DNA of 64,000 nucleotides from Rhizaria sp. SCN 62-66 (Eukaryota), in assembly GCA_001724265.1 (NCBI GenBank), contig MEDY01000137.1, forward strand, positions 1 to 64,000. Direction: 5' to 3'. A program made the translations under genes and the position numbers. The notes under the pieces are model-generated. The model searched no databases and was not told the origin of the DNA. It saw only the letters and a list, made by a program, of their open reading frames with translations. Of the stretch, positions 22,401 to 53,054 are shown one piece after another (position 1 is the stretch's first letter; each line of letters starts with the position of its first letter).

Positions 22401-25338
22401 GCGCTGCAGCCGCCGCAGGTGCCGCTGCTCGTCCTTCCGCAGCTTCTTGGTCATGGTCACGTAGCGCTTGCGCGAGGCCGCCTTGCCGACCGCGACGGCG
22501 CGCATGAAGCTGCGCGCGTGGTCGCGGGCCTGGAAGTCGTAGTCGTCTTCGGGAGCGGCCTCTTTTTCTGCGTCCTTGCGGTCTTCGTTGTCACTTGCAT
22601 TCGCTCCAGCGTCGCCAGCCTTCTTCTCAGGTGAGTTGGTGTTGCTGGTGTTGTTGTTGTTGTTACGGGGGGCATGGATAAACGCACGAAGTGGGAGGAG
22701 TGCGCTGATGTCAGTCACCGGCGTGACATTGTTCTTCTTCCTGGAGACAAAGCAGAACACAAAGACACAAACAAATATGAGCATTCATATCGACTCACTC
22801 GGGGACGGAAATTTTAAACATAAAATTTAAATAAAATTGTGAAATTTAAGTCTCCATCAAAAGTATCAAGACATTATACTTTGATATTACATTGACGATG
22901 CAATGCAACGTACCGAATCGCCTCGAGCGCGGCGTTGCTGTTGGTCGCAATAACCTGGTTCGCCGCCGCAGCCGTCGCCCGCGTGAGCGTGGTCGGGTCC
23001 GCGTCTAGCCAGTCAATCAAACTCGGTGTCCAAGCATCGCGCGCATCCGCACCGGCGGCCCCGCCTCGTCCAGTGCCCGCAGTCACGCCAGAGCTGACTC
23101 CCGCGGCGACTGACGCTGCACCAGTGCCAACGCCAGAGCCAGCGCCAGCGCCGGCGACGCCGCTGATCGCGCCCGCGACAGTGCGTCTGCCGCCGCCGCT
23201 GGCGTTGGCGTTGGCGGCGGCCGTGGCGGCGGCGGCCACGATCTCGACGGCCTGCGCGCGCCTGCTGGCCACAGCGCTAAGCCCCACGTCGACCGCGAAC
23301 GCGACGCGGCCAGCGCCCAGCGCGAGCCAGGAGATGGCGGCGCGCGAGGCTGAGTCCAGCTCCGGCCAGTGCAGCCCGTGCGCCGCGATGCGCAGCGCCG
23401 TCAGCGGGTCAGACAGCGCGCGCGGCGGCGCCCAGAAGCTAAGTCGCGCGCGGGACCAGAGGCCGGCTTCGTGTGTGTCTAAGTACCCCCTTAGCCCGCC
23501 ACCCGCGGGAGTCGCGGTAGCAGCCTGCTCCGCGTGTAAGTGTCCCGTGGTGGGGTTGTGTAAGTACCCCAGCGCGCGCGGCGGCGCAACTGTGAGCTTA
23601 GTCGCCGCGTTGAGCAGTAGCGCCAGCCGCGCCGCGCGCTGTGTCTCGCGCACGTGCGCGTCGGCGAGCTTGGTGAGGCAGCTGTCGCAGTAGGTGTTCC
23701 AGAACGACTGCACGCGCGCGCACGCGGGACAGCGGATACACGTCGGCTGTGGCGGCGCGGCGGCCTCGGCGGCCCGCGGCTGCCGCGTCGGCGTGCGGCC
23801 GGGACCTACGTAGCGCGCGAGGCCCGCGCTGGGCCACGGCAGCGCAGGGGATGGCACGCCGAGTGCGACGCCGCCGACCACGTCCGCGTGCGTCGCCTGC
23901 AGCAGCAGCGACGACGACTTGGCGCGCACACCGCTGCTGCTGCTGACACTGCTGTTACTTCCCGCAAAACGCGGTGCAGACTGACCGAAGCTGATAGAAC
24001 CAGCGTGCAGATAGCTGCCCCCAGCCACCGCAGCAGAATAGCTGTTGTTGCTGTGGATGCCGCTGTTATGGCTCGGCACGTGAGTGCGCGGCAGCGAGCT
24101 GGGCAGCACGCCGCCCGACGACGCCAGGATCCACAGCGCGCGCACTAGCCGCTCCGTGTCCGTCGCGTTCTGGCCGCCCTTCTGCATGAACCGGGAGGTC
24201 GACGCGCGCCCGCTGCTGTTGATGCCCCCGCCGCCGCCACCACGGCCGCCGCGGCCCCCGCGCCCGCCGCGTCCACCGCGGCCGGCGCCGCCGTTGGAAG
24301 CGGAGAAGTTGGCCGTGACGATCTGCCGCACGAGCGCCTCCGCGGCCAAGTGCTCACGATCGGCGGCGTCGGCGGCGGCGTCTTCGGCGCTGCCGTCGCC
24401 CGGTTTGCTGCGGGGGGCAGCGCGGCGGTGCCTGGACTTCACGCGTTCGCCACCCGCGTCGCCATCGTCGCCTGAGACAGAGGAGTTATCCGGCGAGGAA
24501 GACGGCGATGACGATGAAGATAATGAGTCGCTGTCGCCGTTGTCGACGTCAGTCCCGCTCCAGAACCCCCCGCCGGAGCCGACGCCGGTGAGCCCCTTGC
24601 TCTCGGCGCCGGCGCCCTTGACGGCAGCATCAGCGACCTCGCGCAGCGGCGCCGGGACAGCCCAGCCGCCGTGCTTGGCCTTGTCCAGCTGCATGCGCAG
24701 CACGTGCTCCTCGAGCGTCGCCGCCATAACAAGCCGCGTGACGATGACGGGCCGCAGCTGGGTCGCGCGGTAGCTGCGGAAGGCGGCTTGAAGGTCGTGG
24801 GACGCGTTCCAGGACACATCAATAAGGATGACGCGGTTGGCCCAGCTCAGATCTAAGCCTTCGCCACACAGGGTTGACAGAAGAAGCACGTCAACAGAGG
24901 CAGACGCGGTGGCCGTATCGATTTCATCCTGCATTGCCTCTTGGTCATTCTCATCGTCATCGTCGTCATTTTCGTCGTCATCATCGTCGTTTTGGTCATT
25001 ATCGTCGTCGTCATCATCGTCATTGTTGTCATCGTTATCGTCGTCGTCATTGTCGTTGATAGAGGCACGACGCCTGCGCTGCAATGCTGACTTTGCTGAT
25101 GTTTTACTCAGACTCTTCAAACCCTTCCCTTTGCTCTTTGTCCCCTTCGTAGACTTCGCAGAATCCTTCTTCTCGCTACTGTTACTATCAACGCCGCCGC
25201 CGCGGTACAGCTTCGTCATCGCCGCGCGCTCACTGTGCGGCGTCTGCCCGGTAACAACGCGCGCAACAAGGGCCCGCGGCACGCAGCCCCACGGCGGCAG
25301 CGACGGGTGGTGTAAGGGCGCGTTGGCGTCGTGTAAGG

Positions 25339-25376
<38 letters not shown>

Positions 25377-51600: not shown

Positions 51601-53054
51601 GGACTGTTGTTGATGAGTCGGGTGTGTTTGTGCATCTAAGTACCCCCGGCTCGAGCCTTCTAAGTACCCGTCTAAGGGCCATGATCGTCGCACGTGTCGC
51701 CGAGAAGTCTCTCGTCACGCAGTACCAGGACGCGGCTCTTACAGCGGCTCTAAGTACCCTCTCCAGTCTAAGTAGCAGCTCCCCCACCAATGCAACCCTC
51801 GACCCTGCGACAGCAGCTGCCGTTGCCAACGCCAAGGCTTACGTGGCGCAGCTACTGCTGCCTGCACTTCCTTTGGCAGCCATCGCAACGCGTGCTATTA
51901 ATACTCAGCAGGGCGGCGGCAGTCACGCGTCACCCCAGGTGTCATCCCAGGTGTTACCCCATGTGTATCGGCGCCGCGGCTGGCCCGTGCTCCCGCTCGG
52001 CTGCTGTGTCAGCATCGGCTCCGTGCCCGCCCTGGCTTCTCTGTCGCCGCTCTCCTGGATCGAAGCCCATCCGGCCGTCGCCGCGCATATCTCCGCCGCG
52101 CTCGCCGCAGCTGCGACGCTGCCGGCCGCCCCGTTCTTCACTGACTCAACTCGCGCAGCAGCAGCGGACTCTGGTGCGTTTGTGTCGCAGTCCCAGTCGC
52201 TGTCACTGGCGATGTCGTTATCTCAGTGCGGCGGCGGCGGGTTGGCTGCGGCCGCGCTACTGCAGGCGCTGCGCATGCGGATGCGGCGAATGACGATGCG
52301 GGAGGCTGCTGCCGCCGGCATCACATCACTCGCCTCCGCGACGACTGCGACCGCTGTGGCCGCAACGGCGGCGGCGAATGCTGCTGGTGGCGTCGCGCCT
52401 GGCGATGCGAACTCTACGTTGTTTCCGAGCAGTATCGCGAGCGTCGGCTACGCGGCAGCGACGACGGCGACCGTCGACGGTCCCTGGCGCTATTACACTG
52501 TGTACAACGTGACCGTGGGGACCCGGGCAGCCGCTTTGGTTCACTCGGCTTGGGCGCATAAGCTGCTGAGCGACACTGTGCGCGCGGTAGTCAACGTACT
52601 GAACCGCGCTAAGGGGGTACTTACGGTGTCCGCGGGGCTAACGACTGTGTTCGCATCACAGCAGCAGCAACAAACTAGGAACAGCACGCCGGTGCTGAAG
52701 GATGCCCTATCAGTGCCCGACGGCAATATCTGGATTACAATCGTGCCGCAATCTCCGCTCGGCGCACCCCAGAGCTACAATAACAACAACAATAACAACA
52801 ACAATGACAGCAATAATATCAATAGCTTCAGCAGTGGCACTAAGCGGAAGAAGCCCGAGACCGGCGCCGAGCTGTTGGCCGCGCTCGGCGGCAGCGTCCG
52901 CGCGGTCCTGGGCACAGCCTGTGTCGTCGGTCCGCAGTCCCCTCTGGCCGAGCTGGCGCGTCGTTCGCTTTTATTGCGCTTGGCAGGGGCGGACTATGAC
53001 AGTGCAATCCGGGCTGCGAGGGCGATTGTCGCCGAGATGATGACCGCGGTATGA
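48681..53054 (+). CDS. dsRNA-binding domain fused to a degenerate class I/II PLP-aminotransferase-like fold; start uncertain, frame open from about 48568
   Basis: dsRBD-like NRNALQERLQ...WTITLTYHGRELSATGYAKDNKKNAKQAAAYIM. Later VLVQEP, ITPIPIPL, HRPRAVLL, GCWVVVDE, VSIGS, GNIWI and LLLRLA occur in aminotransferase order. Ends in TGA. Confidence 0.6.
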   Translation: MQGLPRTFEAGCAPIMRLDSDQLHVSYISDELYGHVMLGLAGLTPGDAVNLKLIAPSNAASASGATGSFATAAPGTAVAGAAAPVLAGGSPFGSFLGLTSGSSTLSASGISAGTASSSSSSLVSQQWPPVPSYSDTVTDGTLDYHYQRILQNSALPEADALAQLDNFATVPLDVLQASQNRNALQERLQAMGALAMFNLKESESGHFPPGFKFDWTITLTYHGRELSATGYAKDNKKNAKQAAAYIMRRKIAYIDDVRFNHDSSRELYTCTKAPSVMVSKAAAVSAAVAAGAPSLTAIMGGPSAFPLGAGLSTPLHFNLGGSAGLIPNPFPLTVTGMTGITGITGQTGAGGDGVAVFPSSTAAGAGAGIGAGFSAGLGATAAMTDLNATPPSAVNSSGSGSSSSSGSLPLSSSGSGVPVRVATRVGEKVRAAVAAAAADATGPWLGSAAAHGHLAALDAVANDESRGGRQDPISNPNNTVTRVSGLNSASVMSDIDNNESTSTDSTDTSSMHLGSGDGECSAVGTRGTHCTRGAAVSDEFQQNGYWHTFNTVPVPVPVPSWVSFAACPLQLHQHMTATNSSSSSSDHRSSARAVDGSTLAADAAAVAAIARSSLNSAAVSNSYSPGTSHGAASGSGPHSSNAGASSASASPSSSGSSSGGASYGGHLALREALAEVLTEAYQPYNSTASASSGRAMMSGADAAVAAASIVSAADLVAVQGGYLPALRAVLHALVTMDNTTTRKCTRGKKSKGHSSSPSQEATDNCKTESNSANNSSSTSSSSSMCSGGTGDTAEEREEPVTVLVQEPCKPETLQLLASLRITPIPIPLLLPSLNSNNNISSSSSASATFGNNDIALLTATLGSATLPPPDFAQLPELLALHRPRAVLLSSGGGPHGHGGAALAPEKLWSVLSAAVSAGCWVVVDESGDLQTAAGATEMGVSLNPQPIASDNASSSASASARVSASACVDANDVGTVVDESGVFVHLSTPGSSLLSTRLRAMIVARVAEKSLVTQYQDAALTAALSTLSSLSSSSPTNATLDPATAAAVANAKAYVAQLLLPALPLAAIATRAINTQQGGGSHASPQVSSQVLPHVYRRRGWPVLPLGCCVSIGSVPALASLSPLSWIEAHPAVAAHISAALAAAATLPAAPFFTDSTRAAAADSGAFVSQSQSLSLAMSLSQCGGGGLAAAALLQALRMRMRRMTMREAAAAGITSLASATTATAVAATAAANAAGGVAPGDANSTLFPSSIASVGYAAATTATVDGPWRYYTVYNVTVGTRAAALVHSAWAHKLLSDTVRAVVNVLNRAKGVLTVSAGLTTVFASQQQQQTRNSTPVLKDALSVPDGNIWITIVPQSPLGAPQSYNNNNNNNNNDSNNINSFSSGTKRKKPETGAELLAALGGSVRAVLGTACVVGPQSPLAELARRSLLLRLAGADYDSAIRAARAIVAEMMTAV

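Follow-up and report, generated by a model that had tools for sequence, protein, structure and literature searches.

In the 64,000-nucleotide (nt) stretch of contig MEDY01000137.1 analysed here, from the assembly of Rhizaria sp. SCN 62-66 and referred to below as the window, the 14-base word TAAGGGGGTACTTA recurs in exact form within long coding frames. This observation is real and robustly supported. The word is strongly enriched, forms the core of a near-palindrome of about 20 bp, is confined to one lineage of uncultured, GC-rich, flagellated wastewater eukaryotes, lies almost wholly in exons, is constrained at the level of the nucleotide sequence, and is read in frames that follow amino-acid composition. 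Our best reading, a tentative one that could well be wrong, is that it is a lineage-specific iterated DNA word which has been overwritten on existing sequence by sequence-directed conversion or drive, its copies then passing through a filter of protein tolerance. Both the existence and the nature of this directional writing process are what we infer.

Copies of the word and their distribution

A search of both strands of the window confirmed all seven members of the TAAGGGGGTACTTA family that had been listed in an initial annotation of this DNA, namely five exact copies, one copy with one mismatch and one with two. Exact copies therefore outnumber the 1- and 2-mismatch ones (5:1:1), and they are spaced at about 1 per 13 kb. 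At up to two mismatches there are 7 matches against 0.09 expected, a number that 0 of 100 dinucleotide shuffles reached, and at up to three mismatches there are 13 against 1.26. The same annotation had suggested a codon-aware background, and we ran one on the window, shuffling the synonymous codons of 24 stop-free frames (40,290 nt) frame by frame, 200 times, a null that preserves the protein sequence and the codon usage of each gene. The exact 14-mer was observed 5 times against a shuffle mean of 0.00, the 14-mer at up to two mismatches 6 times against 0.16, the 9-mer TAAGTACCC 13 times against 0.33, and the arm GTSTAAG (S being C or G) 26 times against 6.3. Over the whole window no non-repetitive 9-mer is more over-represented than TAAGTACCC, which is present 14 times where an order-3 model predicts 0.17, and the arms GTSTAAG are enriched by themselves (31 against 9.5 expected). 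What had been described as partial copies proved to be a half unit of the word, with the common block TAAGTACC(C), at 13241, 23561, 30419, 50842, 51637, 51661 and 51751, and additional blocks of this kind are present at 3367, 3982, 4045, 4063 and 19794. In the window the half unit occurs in 8 sense and 9 antisense orientations.

All seven window copies fall within two long low-complexity genes of the more than 20 genes present. Five of the seven are in a gene for an SNF2-family ATPase on the minus strand (19413..31252), which has several long exons and in which Pfam recognises SNF2-rel_dom and Helicase_C pieces. The exact copy at 23480..23493 (minus strand) reads CTA AGG GGG TAC TTA (LRGYL) in this gene, and that at 25397..25410 (plus strand), which is adjoined by a GCT-repeat tract and two CCCTTACAC units, reads GTA AGT ACC CCC TTA (VSTPL) in the gene sense, that is, on the minus strand. 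The one-mismatch copy TAAGGGGGTTCTTA at 27224..27237 (plus strand; gene-sense LRTPL) has the symmetric flanks ATCTAAG..CTTAGAT, and the two-mismatch copy CAAGGGGGTACTTG at 29660..29673 (plus strand; gene-sense SSTPL) stands closely upstream of GVGKS, the motif with which the SNF2 domain binds ATP, at a point where an insert of low complexity ends. The exact copy at 30059..30072 (plus strand; gene-sense LSTPL) has wholly symmetric flanks, CGTCTAAG..CTTAGACG. The other two exact copies are in a stop-free frame of 1501 codons on the plus strand (48549..53054), which also holds five half units and in which a Pfam search found no family. In this open reading frame (ORF) the copy at 49612..49625 (minus strand) is read as CTA AGT ACC CCC TTA (LSTPL) and that at 52610..52623 (plus strand) as GCT AAG GGG GTA CTT (AKGVL). 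The idea that the exact copies fall in the two longest exons holds for four of the five, which lie in the two longest stop-free frames, and fails for the copy at 30059, which is in the fifth-longest, a frame of the same SNF2-like gene.

A scan of metagenome contigs with STAAGGGGGTACTTAS gave at least 120 matching loci, and among the matches listed 22 loci come from one other assembly. These 22 related contigs, which were found through the motif itself, amount to 76.5 kb with a GC content of 0.52-0.70 and carry 24 exact copies. They have no nucleotide similarity to the window, yet their codon usage is nearly identical, and we take them to represent the same or a close organism. Alignment of 29 exact copies, 5 from the window and 24 from the related contigs, gives the consensus GT[C/G]TAAGTACCCCCTTAG[A/C]C, in which TAAGGGGGTACTTA is the core of a word of about 20 bp, GT[C/G]TAAGGGGGTACTTA[C/G]AC. 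The flanks are conserved as G at -3 (20/29), T at -2 (25/29), A at +15 (18/29) and C at +16 (23/29), and conservation stops at about -4 and +17 in the 29 copies. The other 98 loci provide a background: of their 99 copies among the matches listed, 1 has both flanks (locus L096, from a third assembly), 6 have one flank and 92 have none. In 596 Gb of prokaryote genomes the 20-mer is present once, and in viral contigs an 18-base pattern of the extended word has 0 occurrences; on these counts a virus or prokaryote source of the word was rejected. An all-against-all blastn of the 142 kb analysed revealed no longer repeat or parent element around the copies, and as to the telo-box-like site suggested in the initial annotation, the same 142 kb hold no tandem array of the motif or of common telomere units (TAAGGG, TTAGGG, TTTAGGG, TTGGGG and the 12-base unit were covered). 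A repeat search of the whole window returned only trinucleotide low-complexity families, and an Rfam search of the word gave no family match.

Parts of the stretch 22500-31500, which carries five of the copies, are present in wastewater and bioreactor metagenome contigs, in 11 rows from seven studies, and in three DNA runs of two studies this 9-kb stretch is found at 0.94-0.99 of sampled words. These data bear on the most trivial explanation, that the word recurs by chance, through protein repeats in common, or as an artefact of the library or the assembly. The window is indeed rich in low-complexity coding repeats, and some of its GGTACTTAC units are part of a Tyr-rich peptide repeat; but the codon-aware and dinucleotide nulls are close to zero, copies stand in unrelated genes on 23 contigs from two or more assemblies, and the 9-kb stretch recurs in runs of separate studies. 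The adapter or assembly artefact for which the initial annotation had left room is excluded, given also that reading frames are kept and that one copy encodes conserved residues of a kinase (see below). We regard this whole class of explanation as extremely improbable.

Constraint on the nucleotide sequence of exons

The DNA of the window is nuclear and comes from a eukaryote with few introns. Its introns, for example those at 22740-22912, 16758-16913 and 43782-43955, are 140-370 nt long, AT-rich and stop-filled, and often end in YTTAG. Since the true introns have this character, the long GC-rich frames are real exons and the word lies in translated sequence. The coding frames have a G+C content at third codon positions (GC3) of 0.7-0.9 and are rich in trinucleotide repeats. 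GC-rich exon-like sequence accounts for 66-70% of positions and contains 29 of 30 copies (binomial p=0.13 for the 5 window copies, p=0.0018 for the 25 related ones), the word itself being 43% G+C. Copies are concentrated in low-complexity, insertion-tolerant genes, and 2 of 29 are inside Pfam-aligned stretches; at locus L086 (Dus), the domain that could be aligned does not include the copy.

The translations given for the word in the initial annotation, xSTPL, LRGYL and AKGVL, and the CTA, TTA, AGT and GTA codons that it forces, were confirmed. When the longest frame through each copy is taken, [L/V]STPL is the reading of 18 of the 29 copies, KGVL of 6, LRGYL of 3 and KYPL of 2. A model based on amino-acid frequencies predicts 15.4, 7.5, 4.2 and 1.9 copies for these readings (p=0.78), while equal use is rejected (p=5e-5). 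With this good fit of the amino-acid model, protein tolerance is all that is needed to account for strand and frame. The peptides encoded by the word are far above compositional expectation, and most copies have therefore changed the protein.

The choice of codons points to the nucleotide sequence as the conserved entity. STPL occurs 13 times in called frames, written as AGT ACC CCC TTA in 11 cases and as variants differing by 1-2 bases in 2, and in preferred synonyms in 0. CTA-AGT is the leading pair among the 101 Leu-Ser codon pairs of the window (12/101), while CTA makes up 6% of Leu codons and AGT 13% of Ser codons. The proposal that the constraint is on DNA or RNA and not on protein, and that the word is written over coding sequence, is backed by these STPL codons together with the codon shuffles and two gap-free alignments described below.

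The two orientations of the word are identical except that the six bases in the middle, framed by TAAG and CTTA, are inverted. Thus LSTPLD and LRGYLD, and likewise KYPL and KGVL, are flip states of one site in one frame. The flip states are not placed alike within genes: among the 30 copies, gene-sense TAAGGGGGTACTTA copies (TAAGGGGG..) have a median position of 0.86 in the stop-free frame, with 9 of 10 in the second half, and the opposite flip state has a median of 0.39 (Mann-Whitney p=0.0008, or p=0.023 for frames uncut by contig ends). Pairs of nearby exact copies (less than 5 kb apart) also show an order, four of five being inverted in the same manner with TAAGTAC.. first and ..GTACTTA second. 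These are 23480/25397 and 49612/52610 in the window, 2585/2824 at locus L093 and 2537/3372 at locus L108; the one exception is the direct pair 25397/30059.

Proposed overwriting and alternative origins of the copies

Two copies lie in alignable protein segments and, to judge from the alignments, add no residues. At locus L091 the word encodes AKGVLT in the segment from APE to DVYGFG of a protein kinase, where the alignment against three solved kinases is gap-free. The conserved Gly, Leu and Thr are in place, and the codons GCT AAG GGG GTA CTT ACC stand amid GC-ending codons; the chance of this codon choice for KGVL is roughly 8 in 10,000 (codon shares multiplied by hand). With 12 bases fewer at this copy the conserved loop would shrink to 7 residues, compared with 11 in the solved kinases to which it aligns. 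The LSTPL copy of L108 lies inside a stretch in which 75 residues match 75 PRMT5_TIM profile positions, and it is aligned without gaps to PGSGTGHDPWR of a homologue. In a further homologue the loop at this site is longer, which makes it the weaker evidence. SKGVLT, encoded by the second copy of L108, is directly outside the block aligned to the homologue and says nothing on insertions or deletions. A representative homologue search for L108 gave 3 distant hits, 2 of them usable, another such search returned only L108 itself, and one with the SNF2 region found none; in the PDB, the SNF2 piece and whole L108 had no hit and the C-terminal piece of L108 had one at chance level (E=1.2). The PRMT5 homologue P0003 (47% identity in the matched stretch; residues 63-74) has LPGYID before the conserved DPW where L108 has LSTPLD. 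LPGYID resembles the flip state LRGYLD, a hint, drawn from this one sequence comparison, that the site may exist in both states.

The gap-free alignments bear directly on the suggestion that the word is a tiny mobile insertion or the footprint of a transposon excision, in which case a fixed piece of 12-21 bases would have entered at a TA-like target and survived in frame where it was tolerated. Such an origin would be in keeping with TA at both ends of the word and with its inverted arms, with the excess of STPL and other peptides, which means that most copies changed the protein, with the insertion-tolerant genes in which copies are found and the scarcity of copies in Pfam-aligned stretches (2/29), and with the local tandem clusters of half units. 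It is at odds with the two alignable copies, neither of which comes with added residues, and with the kinase loop that would drop to 7 residues against 11. The 142 kb contain no parent element or longer repeat, and the members of the family measure 18, 20 or 22 bases, not all multiples of three. Direct target duplication is not evident, the word ending TA..TA with arms that are inverted and not direct; a 2-base palindromic target duplication would be indistinguishable from these. The footprint or tiny mobile insertion put forward in the initial annotation is accordingly disfavoured, since the two alignable copies add no length, and we think it rather improbable. Two related candidates were rejected: paired copies as the ends of a mobile element, as the L108 pair encloses conserved PRMT5 sequence and 40 of 46 GGTACTTA units lie between GC-rich sequences, and a longer element of introner type with its own termini, as no repeat surrounds the copies and conservation ends at -4/+17.

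The symmetry of the word suggests a different kind of explanation. An outward extension of the symmetry had been noted, and it is present at 30059, at 27224 and at the level of the consensus (GTSTAAG..CTTASAC); it does not extend to co-variation of the flanks across copies, the bases at -1/+14 being able to pair in 15 of the 29, where 14.9 would be expected (hand count). The centre GGGGTA is invariant and asymmetric in the 29 copies. GTSTAAG arms also bracket other short GC-rich centres, including the perfect palindromes CTAAGGGCCCTTAG (53342), TAAGGGCGCCCTTA (locus L054) and TAAGGGGCGCCCCTTA (locus L060), and the relatives of the word have 4-, 6- and 8-base spacers, measuring 18, 20 and 22 bases from arm to arm.

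The word may be a site that a sequence-specific DNA-binding protein, probably a dimer, recognises and that is kept by selection for some function of the chromosome, for instance as a replication origin, in the loading of cohesin or condensin, or as a boundary or roadblock. Binding is predicted, each copy would be functional, and the placement in exons would follow from gene density. The two-fold arms of the consensus around a fixed centre would suit such a site, protein tolerance alone would explain the use of both strands, exact copies dominate over those with 1-2 mismatches, a frequency of about 1 per 13 kb in the window is suitable, and LPGYID at the LSTPLD site of the PRMT5 homologue hints at conservation of the site. 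However, the AT-rich introns and spacers, about one third of the sequence and the easiest place for a site of 43% G+C, hold 1 of the 30 copies. Enrichment is also seen for the arms alone (31 against 9.5) and for the half unit alone, the relatives with 4-, 6- and 8-base spacers would be unusual targets of a dimer, a hand count shows no co-variation of the flanks, and the 7 window copies sit in 2 of more than 20 genes at uneven spacing. The dimeric site of the initial annotation fits the consensus arms and the strand neutrality and leaves the near confinement to exons, the asymmetric invariant centre and the 4-8-base spacers unexplained. We consider it unlikely, though a more serious contender than insertion. 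If it were correct, the word would mark a chromosome-level system that tolerates placement in exons.

A signal in the mRNA has also to be considered, whether as a mimic of splice signals, as a site for a U1-type or other RNA-binding protein, or as a hairpin, which would mark long exons or seed introns. Within the word, GTAAGTA or G|GTAC resembles a donor and CCCCCTTAG an acceptor, and real introns of this organism begin GTACG or GTAAGT and often end YTTAG, all three of which the word holds. Two of 29 copies (L089 and L093-2585) stand exactly at a transition from GC-rich to AT-rich sequence, so the G|GTAC of the word could act as a donor there. The gene-sense TAAGGGGG.. copies near the 3' ends of ORFs, the near confinement of copies to exon-like sequence, and clusters of [C/G]TAAGT ahead of probable introns at loci L097 and L116 may be read in the same way. 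Against such a signal, 10 of 30 copies are in the opposite sense and the half unit is about equally frequent in both (8 sense, 9 antisense in the window), high-GC3 coding frames continue through all copies, and 40 of 46 GGTACTTA units are flanked on either side by GC-rich sequence. A contig from the polyadenylated (polyA) RNA run X6 (29508-29757) reads through the 29660 variant unspliced. Among the RNA pieces listed none covers an exact copy in full, one of run X5 beginning 5 nt inside the 25397 copy, and for exact copies this evidence is indirect. Alignment of contigs from sequencing runs to the window gave 125 joints, mostly low-complexity artefacts, and in the parts covered none at a motif copy. 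As regards folding, the energies of five copies are -9.7, -0.2, -2.9, -5.0 and -4.8 kcal/mol, and the sole strong hairpin is that of the 30059 copy (-9.7 kcal/mol, matched by 0 of 200 shuffles). We regard an RNA-level signal as improbable, slightly more so than an insertion.

Several specific identities of this kind were rejected. An intron, including a tiny 12-16-nt GT..AG intron, is contradicted by the open frames and by the RNA contig over the 29660 variant; a programmed frameshift or bypass site by the same frame being open and GC3-rich on both sides; a conserved hairpin by the fact that 1 of 5 copies beats the shuffles, the flanks do not co-vary and Rfam has no match. Introns bounded by half units were not seen. 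As separate observations, the [C/G]TAAGT units cluster 15-90 nt apart near exon 3' ends at about 300-460 of L097, at about 300-600 of L116 (minus strand) and at 51637-51777 of the window; those of L097 and L116 precede probable introns and share the longer string TAAGTAGCTCCGCG. A 45-nt stretch right after the 52610 copy (52618-52662) runs from GTACTTACGG to CATCACAG with GGCTAAC inside, and may carry the signals of a very short in-frame intron.

We return to overwriting as the reading we prefer. A word of about 20 bp would be written into pre-existing sequence by a sequence-directed process that leaves the length unchanged. Candidate processes are short-patch conversion from a fixed template, or a bias of repair or recombination that favours the word. 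The survival, strand and frame of the copies would then be set by the tolerance of the encoded protein, and such a filter would explain the bias to long low-complexity genes and to [L/V]STPL readings. In a more specific form, a nuclear genome would be overwritten by a fixed 20-bp near-palindrome through a sequence-specific system that copies into exons, with flips of the core as a possibility; we hold this form to be possible and somewhat less probable than the general one. Such a system might consist of short-patch repair directed by a guide or a template; another candidate is a nuclease or recombinase whose conversion is biased.

Several observations weigh against overwriting. It rests on two sites, and at one of them (L108) the loop is variable, a second homologue having a longer one. 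A DNA process that is neutral to strand leaves unexplained, on its own, the placement of 29 of 30 copies in GC-rich exon-like sequence when the word is 43% G+C, and it accounts neither for the late position in ORFs of gene-sense TAAGGGGG.. copies (0.86 against 0.39) nor for the same inverted arrangement in 4 of 5 nearby pairs. Most copies changed the protein, as a micro-insertion would do too. Furthermore, we are not aware of a mechanism by which a fixed 20-mer would be written into nuclear genes. The exon bias, the late-ORF bias, the inverted pairs, the copies at GC/AT boundaries, the clustering in two genes and LPGYID are explained by none of the readings, and the probability that the listed readings leave over belongs to some explanation that we have not thought of.

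Known iterated words and other features of the window

The closest parallels are the uptake signal sequences and DNA uptake sequences (USS and DUS) of Pasteurellaceae and Neisseriaceae, which like the present word are short and exact, lie in many cases within genes, are read in more than one frame and make the peptides that they encode more frequent; they occur in hundreds to thousands of copies. One study states that uptake sequences double the frequency of the encoded tripeptides and prefer poorly conserved genes and positions (PMC2817400). Here the parallels are that STPL exists only as the word, that low-complexity genes are hosts and that frame use follows protein tolerance. The differences are that reading frames correlate with preferred codons there and rare codons are forced here, that our word is a near-palindrome of about 20 bp, and that USS and DUS accumulate by biased DNA uptake in competent bacteria. 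To our knowledge no such route of DNA uptake exists in a eukaryote.

HIP1, GCGATCGC, is a highly iterated palindrome of cyanobacteria that is linked to orphan DNA methyltransferases, according to two sources (PMC4390886, PMC13756078). It resembles our word in being palindromic, very frequent genome-wide including coding regions, and of unresolved cause. It differs in being a perfect 8-mer of prokaryotes, whereas here an imperfect 14-20-mer lies in the nuclear exons of a eukaryote. Small palindromes that spread, some of them translated inside genes, are represented by the Rickettsia palindromic elements, by repetitive extragenic palindromic (REP) elements and by the GC clusters and hairpin elements of organelles. 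Short palindromic elements are likewise described for the organelle genomes of Volvox (PMC2670323). These selfish palindromes are insertions of tens to more than 100 bases, unlike the present nuclear unit of at most 22 bases, which has no longer parent in the 142 kb and adds no length at the two sites where this can be judged.

Introner elements, found in Micromonas, Aureococcus and others, are intron-generating transposons. They are similar in being repeats with splice signals inside protist genes, and the word has donor- and acceptor-like signals. They differ in that the 29660 variant stays in an RNA contig, that the word is translated in frame, is far below intron size and is part of no longer element, and that 40 of 46 GGTACTTA units are embedded in GC-rich sequence. 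In chloroplast spacers small hairpin-loop inversions occur between short inverted repeats, and the two orientations of the word, related by a central six-base inversion between TAAG and CTTA arms, are comparable to these. Flipping in the present case would be hinted at solely by LPGYID in the homologue at the LSTPLD site.

A full-text literature search found neither orientation of the 14-mer within the searched library of 8.1 million papers and 0.36 million preprints, and searches on iterated palindromes in eukaryotes or in-frame palindromic elements in nuclear genes gave prokaryote and organelle cases only. Iterated words are thus known from bacteria and organelles, and what is new here is their presence in nuclear exons; the mechanism behind the word is unproven. 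Exact words of 14-20 bases in unrelated nuclear genes, written against codon bias and over conserved residues, are outside the usual picture of eukaryotic genome evolution. Directional writing, if true, would be a new mutational force that reshapes proteins and makes most STPL peptides of this proteome, and it could point to a new sequence-specific DNA-processing enzyme. Overwriting in particular would be the first nuclear counterpart of uptake sequences and HIP1, a natural short-patch 'writer' with a footprint in thousands of genes. The organism is abundant in wastewater reactors and represented in several public data sets, which makes the question approachable with existing reads.

Half units and relatives of the word occur at several other places in the window. 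A cluster of five on the plus strand (51637..51777) comprises CTAAGTACCCCC, CTAAGTACCCG, GTCTAAGGGCC, CTAAGTACCCT and GTCTAAGTAGC, with unit spacings that are multiples of three and repeated LST/LSS encoded. Two half units, GTGTAAGTGTCCC and GTGTAAGTACCCC (23534..23569, plus strand), are 54 and 78 nt from the start of the 23480 copy, and GTGTAAGTACCC (30416..30427, plus strand) is inverted relative to the 30059 copy at a distance of about 350 nt. The half unit TAAGTACCC at 50841..50849 is on the minus strand, the plus strand reading GGGTACTTA. The perfect palindrome CTAAGGGCCCTTAG (53342..53355, no strand assigned) is a relative with TAAG..CTTA arms and a 4-base centre. In the SNF2-like gene, the frame is interrupted by a stop about 50 nt downstream, in the gene sense, of the 27224 copy (region 27172-27237), which may reflect an intron that went unrecognised, a difference between strains or a genuine break. 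An insert of low complexity, roughly 130 residues long, divides the SNF2 ATPase domain right before GVGKS (region 29650-29830), starting near two GTCTAAGT units (29787 and 29802) and ending at the 29660 variant.

The Pfam genes of the window include SNF2 and Helicase_C pieces, a RAI16-like protein, an FAD oxidoreductase, both halves of a flagellar GAS8-type protein, casein kinase II beta, adenosine deaminase, adenylate and nucleoside-diphosphate kinase, ribosomal protein L22e and thioredoxin. The spliceosomal intron of the SNF2-like gene (22740..22912, minus strand) is AT-rich, 173 nt long and bounded by GTACGT..CCAG, and a contig of run X5 joins 22739 to 22913. The GAS8 intron is bounded by GTACGG..CTTTAG and the adenylate-kinase intron by GTACGC..GCTTAG. 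In a heuristic survey the intron donors are mostly G|GTACG and in some cases GTAAGT; the dominance of GTACG over GTAAGT could aid the taxonomic placement of the organism. The literature on a GTACGT donor consensus offered no lead to the taxon, and an atlas search with casein kinase II beta did not resolve it. The largest non-coding block of the window, at 44300-46000 after the adenylate-kinase gene, is AT-rich (GC 0.43) and gene-free and holds no member of the word family. The ORF at 31974-33566, for which there is no Pfam family, encodes an Arg/Gly/Asp-rich repeat protein with GGDRD and SRFGGG units and an internal tandem duplication. Three GGTACTTAC units at 3982..4070 (minus strand) encode Gly-Thr-Tyr in the Tyr-rich repeat of ORF 2227-6114. 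This region takes part in an inverted duplication of about 430 nt (856-1278 and 3586-4017; 80% identity, cores 94-99%) with a Tyr-rich G-T-Y / P-Y repeat, and the GGTACTTAC units differ between its two copies by point changes and a 16-nt gap.

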